DNA of 64,000 nucleotides from the NCBI GenBank assembly GCA_021800795.1, contig JAJYYO010000010.1:80-64079 (forward strand). Reading direction: 5' to 3'. Of the stretch, positions 8,108-61,588 are shown piece after piece. The notes beneath the pieces were generated by a model. The model searched no databases. It saw only the letters and a program-made list of their open reading frames with translations, and was not told the DNA's origin. The stretch comes from Pseudomonadota bacterium. GTDB taxonomy: Bacteria; Pseudomonadota; Gammaproteobacteria; Burkholderiales; Gallionellaceae. The number at the start of each line of letters is the position of its first letter. Position 1 is the stretch's first letter. Made by a program: the position numbers and the translations under genes.

Positions 8108-8299
8108 GTAGGATGCGGTGACAACCGCATCGCTCACGTCATTCCCCAAGCTGCGTTCATATCGCCACCGCGAACGATGCGGTTGTCACCGCATCCTACG
8201 CCGCATCAACGTACCAACTCCTGTATCTTGCGGTTCGCACCCTGCAGTTTTTTGAACAGCGCCAGCACCGCGAATGATGCGGTTGTCACCGCATCCTAC
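8108..8299. repeat. GTAG-type REP cluster (3 copies)
   Basis: GTAGGATGCGGTGACAACCGCATC at 8108-8131 (+), 8176-8199 (-) and 8276-8299 (-). Confidence 0.9.
8206..8267 (-). pseudogene. displaced duplicate of the last 19 codons of the cNMP-binding protein gene
   Basis: LALFKKLQGANRKIQELVR* versus ...ELIR* at 9084-9145. Confidence 0.85.
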
Positions 8300-8346
8300 C
8301 GGGTTTATATGGCGGTTTTCTTGGTAAAGGGGACGCTACCCTTTTA

Positions 8347-8628
8347 CTATAGCCCCAGCTCACTATGGGAACCGAGCCGCACAAGTCGCATATTGTCGGC
8401 GTCTGGTTTGTGGTAAATCAATACCAGGTCAGGCTTGATGTGGCAGTCGCGGTGATCCTTCCAGTCGCCAGTGAGCGGATGGTCACGAAAACGCGGTTCA
8501 AGAGGTTGATCGTTCGCAAGACAATCTACAACGGGAAACAAGTCATCATCAAGCGAAGAGCGGTGCCGGCCTTTGGCTTCGCGCTTGTAGTCTCGCTTAA
8601 ATTGGCCGGTCCATTCAATCGTCCGCAC
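8347..8628 (-). CDS. yafQ: YafQ-family (RelE superfamily) toxin
   Basis: FKRDYKR, DHPLTGDWKDHRDCHIKPDLVLIY, LVRLGSHSEL. Confidence 0.9.
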   Translation of the reverse strand: MRTIEWTGQFKRDYKREAKGRHRSSLDDDLFPVVDCLANDQPLEPRFRDHPLTGDWKDHRDCHIKPDLVLIYHKPDADNMRLVRLGSHSELGL

Positions 8629-8878
8629 GGAGTGCTTTTTTCAATTCCGCAATACTGTTGGCGCGAGGCAGATTTCCGGCGCGAGCCTCCATCATGGCCG
8701 CAATAGTGACGGCATTGGGAACCAGAGGGTCAAATGGCAGTGCGTGTTCATGTGCAATTCTTGTTAGCAGCATTCGCACTGCATCGGACACAGTGAGACC
8801 CATAGCGGCCAGCACGCTCGCTGCCTCTTCTTTGATGGCTCCATCAATGCGGGTTTGTACCAGTTGGTTTGCAGCCAT
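8615..8878 (-). CDS. dinJ: RelB/DinJ-family antitoxin
   Basis: VQTRIDGAIKEEAASVLAAMGLTVSDAVRMLLTRIAHEHALPFD; overlaps the toxin start. Confidence 0.88.
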   Translation of the reverse strand: MAANQLVQTRIDGAIKEEAASVLAAMGLTVSDAVRMLLTRIAHEHALPFDPLVPNAVTIAAMMEARAGNLPRANSIAELKKALRADD

Positions 8879-8902
8879 GATCACTTCTCCTTGTTAATTT
8901 GA

Positions 8903-8915
8903 ATTACATTGTAAT
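8903..8915. promoter_or_regulatory. palindromic operator upstream of dinJ-yafQ
   Basis: ATTACA-T-TGTAAT. Confidence 0.55.
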
Positions 8916-8985
8916 GCATTGCGAGTGGCAGCACAAACATTGGGACGCAAATTGGGGCGCAATATTGGTAAAGGGGTAAAGCGCG

Positions 8986-9076
8986 GTAGGATGCGGTGAC
9001 AACCGCATCGCTCGCGTCATTCCCCGGTTGAGTTTATATCGCCACCGCGAACGATGCGGTTGTCACCGCATCCTAC
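8986..9076. repeat. inverted REP pair (REPIN-like)
   Basis: Same 24-bp REP at 8986-9009 (+) and 9053-9076 (-); spacer is homologous to the 8108-8199 pair. Confidence 0.9.
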
Positions 9077-9083
9077 TACAGCA

Positions 9084-9599
9084 TCAACGTATCAATTCCT
9101 GAATCTTGCGGTTCGCGCCCTGCAGTTTTTTGAACAGCGCCAGCAGCAGTGCTTTATCCATATAGGATTTGACTGTGGCATTGCTTTGCAATCGCGCGAT
9201 GCCGGTTTTGTCGATTTCTGCAACGATCAGCTCTCCATCGGCGACGACGGTCGCCGAGCGTGAAATGCTTCCGCTGGCAAAGAAAGTCCCCTCGCCTATG
9301 CATTCTCCGCTGACTATTTTACCGACTATTTTTTTGTCGCAGTAAACGGTGACCGTGCCGAACAGCACGACGTAGAAGGTATTTGAATCATCTCCTTCCG
9401 AGGTGAGGCAGTCATTAGCGGTAAATTTGCGGATTTCGGCCTGTTCGGAGATGAGCTTCAGCCATTCGCCGGGAACGGGATCGAAAAAAGAACACTTGCG
9501 TAATTCTCGCAAACGTTCGCTTGCATCGTCGTCAAGGCGCTTGGTGAAATTGGCAAGACTGGCCTCGATGGATAGCATGGCGTCGTCGAAGTTGTTCAT
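9084..9599 (-). CDS. cyclic-nucleotide-binding domain protein
   Basis: FYVVLFGTVTV, GECIGE, RSATVVA; start taken at MNNFDD. Confidence 0.8.
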   Translation of the reverse strand: MNNFDDAMLSIEASLANFTKRLDDDASERLRELRKCSFFDPVPGEWLKLISEQAEIRKFTANDCLTSEGDDSNTFYVVLFGTVTVYCDKKIVGKIVSGECIGEGTFFASGSISRSATVVADGELIVAEIDKTGIARLQSNATVKSYMDKALLLALFKKLQGANRKIQELIR

Positions 9600-9677
9600 T
9601 TTTGTCCCCTGTGCTGATCTATCCGTAATCTGTGCGTAACTTATCACAAGCCGCAACCGGCGTATATTAATTCGCGC

Positions 9678-17760: not shown

Positions 17761-19173
17761 TTAGTATCGGTAGTGGTCCGCCTTGTACGGGCCTTCCTTG
17801 GGTACGCCGATGTAGGCCGCCTGCTGGTCGGTCAACTCGGAAAGCTGCGCATTGAGCGTCGTCAGTTGCAGACGCGCGACTTTCTCGTCCAGGTGCTTGG
17901 GCAGCGTGTATACGCCGATCGGATATTCGGCCGTGCGTGTAAAGAGTTCGATCTGCGCGATGGTCTGGTTGGCGAAGGAGGAAGACATCACGTAGGACGG
18001 ATGACCGGTGCCGCAACCCAGGTTTACCAGACGACCTTCGGCCAGCAACAGGATACGGCGGCCAGACGGGAAGATCACGTGATCGACCTGCGGCTTGATG
18101 TTTTCCCACTGATATTGCTTCAATGAGGCAACATCGATTTCGTTGTCGAAGTGGCCGATGTTGCAGACAATAGCCTGGTTTTTCATCTTTACCATGTGGT
18201 CGTGGGTGATCACATGGTAGTTGCCGGTGGTGGTGACAAAGATGTCGCCGTGCTCGCAGGCGTAATCCATGGTTACCACGCGATAGCCTTCCATCGCCGC
18301 CTGCAGTGCGCAGATCGGGTCGATTTCCGTGACCCATACCTGGGCGGACAGCGCGCGCATGGCTTGTGCACAACCTTTGCCCACATCACCGTAACCGATA
18401 ATGACAGCGACCTTGCCCGCGATCATCACATCGGTGGCGCGTTTGATGCCGTCTACCAGCGATTCGCGGCAGCCGTACAGGTTGTCGAACTTGGACTTGG
18501 TCACCGAGTCGTTTACGTTGATCGCAGGGAATTTCAACTCGCCGCGTTCGTGCATCTGGTACAAACGATGTACGCCGGTGGTGGTCTCTTCGGTCACGCC
18601 CTTGATGGCGGCAAGACGGGTGGAATACCAGGTTTTGTCGACAGCCAGCTTGGCCTTGATTGCGTTATACAGGCAGATTTCTTCTTCGGAACCCGGGTTG
18701 TTCAGCAGCGATGCGTCTTTTTCAGCGCGCGCGCCCAGATGCAGCAACAGCGTTGCATCGCCGCCGTCGTCCAGGATCATGTTGGACAGACCGCCGTCTT
18801 TCCATTCAAAGATGCGGTGGGTGTAATCCCAGTATTCGGCAAGCGTCTCGCCCTTGACCGCGAACACCGGCACGCCGGTCGCGACGATGGCGGCGGCGGC
18901 GTGATCCTGTGTGGAGTAGATGTTGCAGGAAGCCCAGCGCACTTCGGCGCCCAGCGCGGTCAGCGTTTCGATCAGCACGCCGGTCTGGATGGTCATGTGC
19001 AGCGAGCCTGTGATGCGTGCGCCTTTGAGGGGTTGGCTGGCGGCGTATTCCTTGCGGATGGCCATCAGGCCAGGCATTTCGATTTCGGCGATAGCCAGTT
19101 CCTTGCGTCCCCAGGCAGCCAGGGACATGTCGGCGACGATATAGTCGGTGAATCCGTTTGCAACAGCGTTCAT
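17761..19173 (-). CDS. ahcY: adenosylhomocysteinase
   Basis: [38 protein letters not shown]; RBS GGAG before 19173. Confidence 0.98.
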
Positions 19174-19205
19174 AAAAACTCCATTCATTGTGTTGGTTAA
19201 TGAAT

Positions 19206-19277
19206 AGGTGCCGTTGAAACAAAATCATTACTCCGAGCCTGACGGGGCGTTCAGAACCGCTGCAGCACCTCTCGGAG
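19206..19277 (-). promoter_or_regulatory. SAH riboswitch
   Basis: Minus strand ctccgagaggtgctgcagcgg...ccgtcaggctcggag...aacggcacct matches the SAH aptamer layout, directly upstream of ahcY. Confidence 0.9.
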
Positions 19278-19412
19278 GAGGCGGATTATAAACGCAAAAA
19301 ATATTTTTGGCTAAGTACTCAAATAATAGAATGATTCCAAATGCACAAAACCGTACTCAGACCAAAGTCCGGGTACGGTTTTGTGTGTGGAACAAGCGCC
19401 GCAGGCGTAGCC

Positions 19413-19442
19413 TTACAGGCCAGCGTCATTTAAGGTGTTTTG
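19413..19442 (-). pseudogene. recoded, internally deleted duplicate of the metK 3' end
   Basis: CAA AAC ACC TTA AAT GAC GCT GGC CTG TAA (QNT-LN-DAGL*) versus [15 protein letters not shown]. Confidence 0.65.
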
Positions 19443-19512
19443 GCTACAGCGCACATCTGCTACGCAGATATGTGCCTACGCCGAAATACTGACAAACCCC
19501 TACGGGGCGGGC

Positions 19513-20676
19513 TTATAGCCCGGCATCCGCGCGGAGCGCGGCTGCTTTGTCAGTATTTTCCCAGGTGAATTCGGGTTCTTCGCGGCCGAAGTGACCGTAG
19601 GCAGCGGTTTTTTCATAGATGGGGCGCAACAGGTCGAGCATTTGCACGATGCCTTTCGGGCGCAGATCAAAATGACGCAACACCAGTTCGGTCAGTTTTT
19701 CATCGGAAATTTTGCCTGTTCCATAAGTGTCGACCATCACGCTGGTGGGTTTTGCAACGCCGATTGCATAGGAAACCTGCACCAGGCACTTGCTGGCAAG
19801 GCCCGCCGCAACGATGTTCTTGGCGACGTAACGACCGGCATAGGCAGCCGAACGATCCACCTTGGAGGGGTCCTTGCCGGAAAATGCGCCGCCGCCATGA
19901 GGCGCTGCGCCGCCATAGGTGTCCACGATGATCTTGCGACCGGTCAGTCCGCAATCGCCTTGCGGGCCGCCGACAACGAAACGACCGGTCGGGTTGACCA
20001 GAAAGTTGATATTGCCCTTGATGAGTTCTTTAGGCAACATCGGCATGATGATGTCTTCGATCGCCGCTTCGCGGATCGCTTCCAGGGTCATCTCCGGCGC
20101 ATGTTGCGTGGAGAGCACCACGGTGTCGATGCAGTGCGGTTTGCCGTCTATGTAGCGGATGGTGACCTGTGACTTGGCGTCAGGGCGCAGCCAGGGCAGA
20201 CGGCCATCGTGGCGCAATTGCGCCTGACGCTGTACAACCTGATGTGCCAGGTAAATGGCCACCGGCATCAACGTCGGCGTTTCATCGCAGGCGTAACCGA
20301 ACATCAGCCCCTGGTCACCCGCACCCTGATTTAAAAAGTCATCCGAGGCACGATCCACGCCCTGAGCGATGTCCGGGCTTTGCTTGTCGTAAGCGACCAG
20401 TACCGCGCAACCCTTGTAGTCGATGCCGTATTCGGTGTTGTCATAGCCGATGCGCTTGATGGTGTTGCGTGCGACCTGGATGTAATCGACATTGGCAGTG
20501 GTGGTGATTTCGCCGGCCAGAACCACCAGCCCGGTGTTGGTCAGCGTCTCGGCAGCTACCCGTGCATACGGATCTTGCGCTAGAATTGCATCCAGAATCG
20601 CATCGGAAATTTGATCCGAAACCTTGTCGGGATGGCCTTCGGACACGGATTCGGAGGTAAACAGAAATTCACTCAT
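19513..20676 (-). CDS. metK: S-adenosylmethionine synthetase
   Basis: [26 protein letters not shown]. Confidence 0.98.
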
Positions 20677-60097: not shown

Positions 60098-61170
60098 GCT
60101 TCTCCTTTCTCGACTATTTCGGCACATATCCCAGCCACCGTATCTGCTGCATGGCTCTTGGCCGCATTGCGCGCCTGTTGCGCCATCGCCATTAATTTTT
60201 CCCGGACAAGTTCTCTCAATAACTGTGCGAGCCTGTCCGCATTCAGTTCTGACTGCGGCAGCAAAATAGCCGCTCCTCGTTCGCTCAAGAAACGTGCGTT
60301 ATGCGTCTGGTGATCGTCCACCGCAAACGGAAACGGAATCAACAGGCCGGCCACGCCGGCTGCCGCCAGCTCAGCCACGGTCAGCGCACCGGATCGGCAA
60401 ATCACCAGATCAGCTGCTGCGTAACTTGCCGCCATATTTTCGATGAAGGGCTGGATGTCAGCCTGTATGCCCAGCTGGTTGTACAAAGCTACAACCGCGG
60501 TGTGATGAGCACGGCCTGTCTGATGCACTACATTGGGACGCACATCTGCCGGCATTTTCGCAAGTGCTTCCGGTACGGCGTCATTGATGGCCTTCGCCCC
60601 CAGACTGCCGCCCACCACCAGCAGGTTTAGGCGGCCTGTGCGTTTTGCATAGCGCAACTCGGGCGGGTCAATATTCACAATTTGACCGCGCACCGGATTG
60701 CCGCACCACAGCGCGCCGGGCAACACATCCGGAAAACCCGTCAGTACGCGGTTCGCTACATGTGCCAGCACCTTGTTGCTCAGACCCGCAATTGAATTTT
60801 GCTCGTGTATCACCAGCGGAATCCTCAGCGCGGCGGCCATCAAGCCGCCCGGAAATGTGATATAGCCGCCCATCCCCAGCACCAAGTCGGGTCTGACGCG
60901 CATCATCGCAATCAGGCTCTGCCACAACGCTACCGCAAGATTCAGCGGCAGCAGCAGCTTGCGCAATATACCCTTGCCGCGCAGACCCGAAAAACGCACT
61001 GTCTCCATACGGTAGCCGTGTTTCGGCGCCAGATCGGCTTCCATGCTGTTCGGCGCGCCCAGCCAGGTCACCTGCCAGCCTTCACCACGCAACACGTCGG
61101 CCACCGCAAGAGCCGGGAATATGTGCCCGCCCGTGCCTCCGGCCATAATTAATATAGAGCGGCTATTCAT
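60094..61170 (-). CDS. murG: undecaprenyl-PP-MurNAc-pentapeptide GlcNAc transferase
   Basis: [34 protein letters not shown]. Confidence 0.97.
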
Positions 61171-61258
61171 GGCATTTCTCTGAGATGGGCACATTTCTGC
61201 CGAAGGCAAAAATATGGCCCCCGGTTCCACCTGCCATAATTAAAATGTTTCGGCTCAC
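61163..61258 (-). other. 31-codon mini-ORF: recoded duplicate of the murG N-terminus
   Basis: GTG-start [40 protein letters not shown]; stop lies just inside the murG start. Confidence 0.8.
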
Positions 61259-61282
61259 GAAGCACCTCCTGAGTCAGAGGAA

Positions 61283-61409: not shown

Positions 61410-61588
61410 TCATATTGGCAACCCCCGTGCAATCCTGCGATTTTGGCTACGCCTTAAAGAAAGATTGGAGATTATAATTTTCACAATGGCAAGCAACGGG
61501 CAAGTCGACGGTTTTGGCTGCGCCGAAACAGAAGGTTGGAAATTATTGAATTTCATATTGGCAACCCTCTGGCCAACCTTCTGTTTTC
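61410..61588 (-). repeat. ~72-bp tandem units carrying recoded ftsW C-termini
   Basis: Stops at 61553, 61481 and 61410; [30 protein letters not shown]. Confidence 0.85.

Follow-up and report, generated by a model that had tools for sequence, protein, structure and literature searches.

The locus described here raises a simple question: why is metK, the essential S-adenosylmethionine synthetase gene of a Gallionellaceae bacterium, followed by a second copy of its own 3′ end? The gene lies on a 64,000-nt stretch of contig JAJYYO010000010.1 (hereafter the window). A first-pass annotation made from the letters of the window had noticed the duplication and described a perfect inverted repeat at the gene end, a junction like that at ftsW and a palindrome nested in the hairpin. 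All of the described elements were found at the coordinates given, and the interpretation placed on them held in part. The metK tail sits on a small cassette without any open reading frame (ORF), a member of a family found at the ends of many housekeeping genes across Betaproteobacteria. In the explanation that we favour, with a probability of about 0.5, such cassettes are exchanged in a junction-anchored, structure-guided manner by a putative enzyme. The unit supplies, in functional form, all of the gene that lies beyond the junction; the gene therefore stays intact and its previous tail is pushed downstream. Coordinates are positions in the window, and ORFs, inverted repeats and folds were computed on its letters; a vertical bar marks a junction.

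Layout of the metK cassette

The metK gene (19513..20676, minus strand), recognized from the ORF list and its Pfam domains, encodes 387 aa. It contains three Pfam S-AdoMet synthetase domains, the C-terminal of which stops at residue 373, the junction codon, and the cassette supplies the stop together with the final 14 codons (N374-L387). The minus-strand reading of the gene end is TTC ACC TGG G|AA AAT ACT GAC AAA GCA GCC GCG CTC CGC GCG GAT GCC GGG CTA TAA. Read in this direction, the order of elements is metK TGG G|AAAATACTGACAAA...TAA, TTTGTCAGTATTT, CGGCGTAG, the palindrome, GTAGCC and |AAAACACC...GACGCTGGCCTGTAA. The left cassette boundary, G|AAAA within the Glu373-Asn374 codons GAA AAT (19559..19560, minus strand), was placed by comparing the live copy, TGG G|AAAAT (G|AAAATAC...), with the displaced copy, GCC|AAAACAC..., and is uncertain by 4 nt, within the AAAA.

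The current unit (unit 1; 19442..19559, minus strand), delimited by its fold and by the layout that it shares with other units, consists of AAAA, a recoded tail, TAA, post-stop hairpins, a right arm and a linker. The 13-bp inverted repeat of the first-pass annotation (19484-19496 / 19546-19558; repeat I2) was present and 100% complementary (13/13 bp). Its left arm, AAATACTGACAAA (19546..19558, minus strand), is coding (N-T-D-K) and lies within metK codons E373-K377. The right arm, TTTGTCAGTATTT (19484..19496, minus strand), follows the TAA after 16 nt, and its end abuts the linker start exactly; the two arms are 49 nt apart. The linker (19442..19483, minus strand), defined by its fold and by alignment to relatives' linkers, reads CGGCGTAG - hairpin 1 (19451-19475) - GCT - GTAGCC, and the junction string tttcggcgtag[gcacatatctgcgtagcagatgtgcgctgtag]ccaaaa reads as it had been annotated. 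In the minimum-energy fold the linker ends pair with each other (TTTCGGC/GCCAAAA). The 25-nt palindrome at 19451-19475 has a single occurrence in the window, where 0 matches are expected by chance. When 19438-19560 was folded as single-stranded DNA, the energy was -42.1 kcal/mol, versus -19.8 +/- 2.7 for shuffles (z = -8.4); in the predicted fold three small hairpins meet in a junction closed by the arms, and the linker has a stem of its own.

Behind the linker stands the displaced tail copy AAAACACCTTAAATGACGCTGGCCTGTAA (19413..19441, minus strand), recognized by its reading frame (CAA AAC ACC TTA AAT GAC GCT GGC CTG TAA) and by comparison with the relative L007. It encodes QNTLNDAGL* and has an 18-nt internal deletion. 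The remainder of the older unit (19383..19412, minus strand), identified by its match to L007, comprises the post-stop hairpin GGCTACGCCTGCGGCGC and a degenerate right arm, the linker having been lost. From TGACGCTGG across the stop and the post-stop hairpin, 33/34 nt of the remnant are identical to unit 1 of L007. This match to the full-length unit of a relative, together with the z value of the fold, indicates that the DAGL* resemblance is not coincidental. The first-pass annotation had regarded the displaced copy as older and more decayed, which stands, with the correction that it represents an earlier cassette unit, of a different synonymous type, rather than the original gene end. Read from its letters, the metK locus is a type-A unit that stands before an older, decayed type-B unit and has a linker without hairpin 2.

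The same layout at other loci of the genome

The whole assembly (3.2 Mb, 63 contigs) was searched by motif and then by structure. The metK layout recurred at 8 other loci, and at least 9 loci with about 10 units were found in total: metK, ftsW (two units), the 5′ end of murG, cysH, ccmE, nrdA, accB and one on contig C12. At ftsW, whose junction is TTTCGGCGCAGCCAAAA, the correspondence drawn earlier with the duplicated metK end was borne out. Two stacked sister cassettes with the short linkers CGGCGCAGCC and GGCGTAGCC occupy 61445..61587 (minus strand) at the gene's 3′ end, which reads G|AAAACAGAAGGTTGG...TGA...CCAACCTTCTGTTT CGGCGCAGCC|AAAAC.... Beyond them a third tail copy lies at 61410-61444, and one of the three ftsW tail copies reads QNRRIARGLPI*. 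Facing the ftsW cassettes in the opposite orientation is the murG 5′ cassette (about 61117-61270), which has the mini-hairpin linker TTT-C-TGCC-GAA-GGCA-A-AAA and a displaced murG 5′ copy that begins at ~61209 on the + strand. On other contigs, the accB cassette (C9:~88111) covers 16 codons with 9 synonymous nt differences and 0 residue differences, and the cassette at C12:~13627 lies at the 3′ end of a gene and has the linker CGGCGCGGAGCC.

A family of gene-end units among related genomes

A strict linker pattern, TTCGGCGNAG-N(0-60)-GYAGCCAAAA within the genus and with N(0-70) across the order, was found in 46/101 genomes of the same genus, and the reversed control gave 0 matches. Across the order it was found in 22/301 genomes, which correspond to 19/142 genera. 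Individual genomes of relatives contained 0-8 strict matches. In a collection of named genomes, for which ~100 chance matches were expected by estimate, nearly all matches fell in Betaproteobacteria (Gallionella, Sideroxydans, Dechloromonas, Azonexus, Accumulibacter, Methylophilus, Methylotenera, Thiobacillus, Sulfuritalea, Rhodoferax, Paraburkholderia and others); the few outside this group are probably chance matches.

More than 20 different genes showed an identical junction geometry. The target genes included metK, ftsW, murG, mraY, murA, cysH, ccmE, nrdA, accB, an argF-like gene, acs, pyk, rlmN and a dksA-like gene, and units were also found at the 5′ ends of galU-like and major facilitator superfamily (MFS)-like genes, in tRNA neighbourhoods and at plain terminator hairpins. 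Units of the family stack next to the gene. Among relatives, three full units were found in L005, the array [B]-L1-[C]-L2-[A] in L007, four units in L026 and [A′]-L2-like-[A] in L072, while the metK sites of L006 and L011-L020 were empty. The intermediate states to be expected if the displaced copy were a true remnant exist in relatives, with full-length second and third copies in L003, L005, L007, L010 and L026. At a locus from another genus of the same family (L051, genome G184), near-identical accB tail units form a tandem array of five that repeats every 144 nt, and this array is, to judge by its sequence, very young. In a metagenome-assembled genome labelled Bordetella parapertussis (L093), the sequence duplicated by the units is the 5′ half of a putative tRNA gene (GGAGAGTTGGCAGAGCGGTTGAATGCAC...) together with its upstream region, which suggests that the family extends beyond protein-coding genes.

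Anatomy of the units

The unit plan comprises an N|AAAA near the gene end, the gene end itself (stop or start), an arm complementary to the unit's own first 4-16 nt, and a linker of the form TTT-C-hairpin-A-AAA. After the linker, a second AAAA and the displaced gene end were seen at metK, ftsW, cysH, ccmE, nrdA, accB and others. The statistics of this plan were taken from 166 distinct units, and the arm control was a test site shifted 25 nt upstream. Exact arms of at least 7 nt were present in 82/166 units versus 2/166 in the shifted control; 72 of these 82 long-arm units are preceded by G-A and 67 start with AAA. Arm start and linker were a median of 68 nt apart (range 20-266 nt), and linkers measured at most ~95 nt. 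None of the 166 units carried cargo or an ORF.

The arms track the synonymous codons of each unit (AAATACAGATAAG/CTTGTCTGTATTT, AAACACTGACAAA/TTTGTCAGTGTTT, AAACACGGATAAG/CTTATCCGTGTTT), and the match extends to the junction itself (AAGC/GCTT, GAAT/ATTC). The linker ends co-vary as well (GGC/GCC, GAT/ATC, GAC/GTC, GAG/CTC, TGCC/GGCA). Linkers are either mini-hairpins such as GGC-GYA-GCC or have a long form composed of CGGCG-NAG, hairpin 1 (CTAAC...GTTAAG), hairpin 2 and CGG-YCG-YAG-CC, and variant linkers (L005, L008, murG 5′) keep the structure alone. GNA triloops give unusually stable DNA hairpins, and 75/118 predicted triloops were GNA loops.

These dimensions bear on the idea that the units were left behind as attL/attR scars by larger integrative elements that target gene ends and bring a replacement end with them, such as phages, integrative and conjugative elements or relatives of the staphylococcal cassette chromosome (SCC), and whose interior was later deleted. 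SCC arrays stack at rlmH, tandem islands are similar, and the direct repeats containing a gene end and the stacking next to the gene in our units recall both. In addition, a DinJ-YafQ module in the window is flanked on either side by a copy of the last 19 codons of a gene, but that case belongs to a different repeat family. With no cargo in 166 units of such small size, and with a linker for which neither 72,556 plasmids nor 50,697 phage records gave a match, identity with att scars was rejected. A scar would also leave unexplained the complementarity of the right arm to the beginning of its own unit, and we regard this origin as very improbable.

Units were found at 3′ as well as 5′ gene ends, with constant polarity relative to G|AAAA. 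Because the polarity is the same at stop-codon and start-codon ends, the constraint acts on DNA and not on the transcript. This is relevant to the proposal that hairpin and linker form a host regulatory module for mRNA 3′ protection, termination or translational coupling, of which the duplicated tails are a by-product. Such a role would suit the very stable structure that encloses the stop codon, the units that are plain terminator-like hairpins (L077) and the displaced ftsW copies, which retain an open frame ending at the murG start. However, the units at 5′ ends (murG, galU-like, MFS-like) are oriented opposite to transcription, the distribution is patchy among close relatives, as the empty metK sites illustrate, and foreign synonymous copies would have no explanation. 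A regulatory origin is improbable in our judgement, if less so than an att scar.

Origin of the live and displaced copies

The first-pass annotation had pointed out that the six codons shared by the two metK copies differ only at the third base, and this is the case: 6 nt and 0 residues differ, an outcome that 0/20,000 random-mutation trials reached. In nine comparisons of live and displaced copies within the genome, 5-12 nt but only 0-4 residues were different. Simulated random mutation produced such synonymy in at most 0.7% of trials at every locus (P <= 0.007), and at accB, ccmE and metK in 0/20,000 trials. Decay in place would yield mostly amino-acid changes, and therefore both copies evolved as working gene ends and were joined recently. 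If the synonymy is read in this way, the live and displaced copies must have evolved as functional gene ends in different lineages. Tandem duplication in situ followed by neutral decay would account for the observation that the distal copies of arrays are the most decayed, but the synonymous bias is far beyond what random mutation gives. Neither this process nor chance resemblance fits the 33/34-nt match to a relative's unit, and chance would not produce 82 long arms against 2 in the shifted control. We consider an explanation along these lines hardly credible.

Within the genus, metK tails fall into at least 3 synonymous types that are mixed within arrays, and three distinct tail types were found inside clusters of close metK bodies. 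To separate homologous from site-specific exchange, body and tail distances were correlated, which gave r = 0.08-0.23 versus 0.44 between adjacent body segments; with a tail of 48 nt this comparison is too coarse to be rigorous. Two strains in metagenome material differ from the window at this locus. In strain X4, 197 nt upstream of the junction are identical to the window, and a type-C tail is present from 7 nt after G|AAAA. In strain X6, the flank on the ahcY side is common up to 19424 and is followed by ~150 differing nt (versus 87 in the window) and a diverged metK end. The metK locus is therefore polymorphic among strains, and foreign DNA begins at the junction.

History of the metK linker

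The first-pass annotation had interpreted the palindrome in the metK linker as a nested insert. It is not an insert private to this locus, since each of its bases has a counterpart in hairpin 1 of the long metK linkers of L052, L003 and L007. The alignment with these three relatives extends across CGGCG.AGGC.CATATC.GCG.AGC.GATGTG and contains compensatory changes in hairpin 1 (CTGC/GCAG versus CCGC/GCGG). The sole difference of the window linker from the relatives' long form is a 14-15 nt deletion that removes hairpin 2. Long linkers throughout the family have CG-NAG / CG-YAG repeats on their two sides, and it is therefore still conceivable at the family level that a minimal hairpin linker anciently received hairpins 1 and 2 as a nested insertion next to G-Y-A-G.

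The linker of the nrdA cassette (contig C6:58330-58560) contains a 19-bp inverted repeat enclosing two copies of the genome's common repetitive extragenic palindrome (REP; cccgcgcaggcggga...), which suggests that linker hairpins themselves serve as insertion targets.

Discussion

Under the explanation favoured here, folded single-stranded units would be cut and joined 5′ of AAAA at both ends by a trans-acting enzyme. The arm and the TTTC segment could together guide the reaction by base pairing, in that they would present both cleavage sites of the unit as well as the cognate target. In a circle, or at the right junction, a single long hairpin could arise from arm′-TTT-C-GGC...GCC-A-AAA-arm, and the exchange point would lie in the stem of this hairpin. 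At a gene without a cassette, insertion might begin with a nick at N|AAAA, from which strand-displacement synthesis would proceed until the new strand switched template onto the displaced strand. A single template-switch event of this kind would yield the duplication together with an arm whose end coincides exactly with the nick.

Several results weigh against enzymatic exchange. No enzyme was identified for the cassettes. Their presence did not track with Y1 transposases (PF01797), as cassettes were found in 37/80 genomes with and 9/21 without them, or with IS91-type Y2 transposases (PF04986; 18/34 with versus 28/67 without). No linker-like sequence was found around the genome's IS91 copy (C55:61323-63406). 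The identical tandem units of L026, L051 and L047 are possible by unequal crossing-over, and the apparent conservation of the linker sequence is partly produced by the search pattern. Sequence identity upstream of the junction keeps the exchange boundary in X4 from being placed more finely than 'not beyond +7'. Finally, no excision product or circle was found among the metagenome material, which consisted of assembled contigs only.

The same observations can be turned into an account based on host processes alone. Units would arise by rare template switching at a hairpin-forming linker and would spread, swap and stack without a dedicated enzyme. The routes could include natural transformation with recombination by RecA in gene bodies and conserved linkers, unequal crossing-over, deletion by slippage between the AAAA repeats on the two sides of the hairpin and Holliday-junction resolution at the edge of homology, while quasi-palindrome correction would keep the arms complementary. 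Identical tandem units and the lack of any Y1 or Y2 transposase association agree with this account. The mosaic arrays with common linkers but different tail types (L007 versus L072) fit it as well, as does the first copy of L025, a hybrid with a native-like GAAAGCAC start and a type-B remainder. RuvC has the cleavage preference (A/T)TT|(G/C), and all three breakpoints read TTT|C or TTTT|G, in keeping with it. However, one exact junction geometry in more than 20 genes is too regular for rare illegitimate events. Donor tails are ~20-30% divergent at synonymous sites, where RecA recombination is very inefficient, and X4 shows no donor-type tract upstream of the junction. On balance we consider host processes alone a rather unlikely source of the units, though the strongest of the competing accounts.

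A more far-reaching version of the enzymatic explanation is that the units constitute a new class of programmable, protein-less homing cassettes, in which a 4-16 nt arm guides a putative single-strand nuclease-ligase, either a host or a domesticated enzyme, to a matching site for cleavage 5′ of AAAA. We put this forward tentatively, as a possibility that we would sooner doubt than assert. Insertion itself would then duplicate the adjacent gene end through strand displacement and template switching. If this were true, essential genes could be entered without damage and tails could be exchanged between distant lineages without homology.

Relation to known systems

No published description of such gene-end cassettes was found in limited literature searches, and a survey of GTAG-REPs did not report gene-end duplications. 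A scan of 5 cassette loci with Rfam 15 (E <= 1) returned the S-adenosylhomocysteine (SAH) riboswitch as the single match. The family thus appears to be undescribed, and it apparently joins target-restoring insertion with hairpin-ended miniature elements.

The one-ended transposition of IS801 mobilizes a fixed end together with upstream DNA that starts with the target tetranucleotide (PMC3189936). Like these IS91/IS801 elements (HUH Y2), which have one fixed hairpin end and a variable other end lying upstream and starting with the target tetranucleotide, the cassettes have a fixed end, ...GYAGCC, and a start, AAAA, that abuts the target AAAA; flanking gene fragments are carried along in both. 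Unlike them, the cassettes use AAAA rather than GAAC/CAAG as the target, measure 30-270 nt with no transposase-derived sequence, possess a target-complementary arm, and carry a fragment that restores the gene. The end of the cassettes has no homologue at the resident IS91 copy, in contrast to one-ended IS91/ISCR derivatives, and the 28/67 genomes that carry cassettes without PF04986 separate the two groups further. The resident copy at C55:61323-63406 encodes an intact IS91-family Y2 transposase (395 aa) after a 291-aa ORF whose N-terminus was read as integrase-like.

Hairpin-defined ends, and the precise cutting and joining proposed here, are shared with the IS200/IS605 family (IS608) and with REP/REPIN elements and their RAYT proteins (PMC3333891, PMC8266576, PMC3733652). 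In IS608 and REP/REPIN systems, as proposed for the cassettes, a guide 5′ of the hairpin base-pairs to present the cleavage sites and there is no classical target duplication; G-N-A-G tags beside hairpins are a further likeness to REP/REPIN. The guide differs in that IS608 uses 4-nt guides, whereas that of the cassettes would be 4-16 nt long and gene-specific. Cassettes number 1-10 per genome versus tens to hundreds for REP/REPIN, their tag is GNAG with all four bases at N rather than a fixed GTAG, and, in contrast to RAYT-dependent elements, they occur in 9/21 genomes without a PF01797 match.

Elements that regenerate gene ends, namely phages and islands with att sites in tRNA or protein genes and SCC at rlmH/orfX, resemble the cassettes in that an incoming synonymous end displaces the old one and successive arrivals stack beside the gene. 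In contrast to these elements, the cassettes have no integrase or cargo, are ~100 nt long rather than kilobases, use one linker for more than 20 genes and also target 5′ ends.

Integron attC sites, too, are hairpins conserved in structure and variable in sequence, new units enter at the first array position, and hairpin 1 (CTAAC...GTTA(A)G) resembles the RYYYAAC/GTTRRRY cores. The crossover in the cassettes is at GCC|AAAA, however, and not at G|TT in the core, and the content of a cassette is the target gene's own end. No platform integrase was noted, and no search aimed at intI was made. Identity with attC was rejected, since the core-like CTAAC/GTTAAG lies inside hairpin 1 but the unit boundaries are at N|AAAA.

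In CRISPR adaptation and casposon integration, insertion duplicates a segment at the entry point and the oldest, distal repeat degenerates, as would be the case here; casposons also sit in gene 3′ ends. The cassettes differ in that the duplicated length is variable (20-266 nt), there is no linked Cas1-like gene and the 'spacers' are all one linker. A diversity-generating retroelement was rejected because the repeat differences occur at third codon positions and involve all four bases, not adenines alone. The genome's candidate dif site for Xer recombination (AATACGCATAATGTATATTATGTCAAAT, contig C51) was also discarded, being unlike the linker.

If the cassettes are active, they would represent an undescribed route into essential genes in which the insert repairs what it interrupts, and a natural case of site choice by a short complementary arm, which would be relevant to programmable DNA insertion. 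Should they be passive, the cassettes still mark hot spots at which the tails of housekeeping genes (metK, ftsW, accB, nrdA, argF and others) are swapped among distant Betaproteobacteria. The spare gene ends mislead gene calling, create small open frames and distort estimates of recombination and phylogeny from marker genes.

Neighbouring features of the window

A terminator-like hairpin (19344..19385, minus strand; inverted repeat I1, 19-nt arms, 89% complementary) lies 3′ of the cassette region and was not called by a consensus terminator-type scan. The next gene after metK is ahcY (17761-19188); besides these two genes, the reading of the ORF list here covered a neighbouring acyltransferase-like ORF. 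The SAH riboswitch upstream of ahcY (19199..19279, minus strand; Rfam RF01057, 46.4 bits, E = 5e-6) lies outside the cassette and provides context, and a promoter-like site is located near it at 19285-19313.

Elsewhere in the window, at 8108-9145, the DinJ-YafQ-like toxin-antitoxin pair mentioned above lies between two copies of a ~160-bp block. The block contains the final codons of a cyclic nucleotide monophosphate (cNMP)-binding gene (9084-9656) together with two REPs in inverted arrangement (gtaggatgcggtgacaaccgcatcg...). This arrangement has in common with the cassettes the principle of a replacement gene end, and differs from them in its repeat family and in having cargo.

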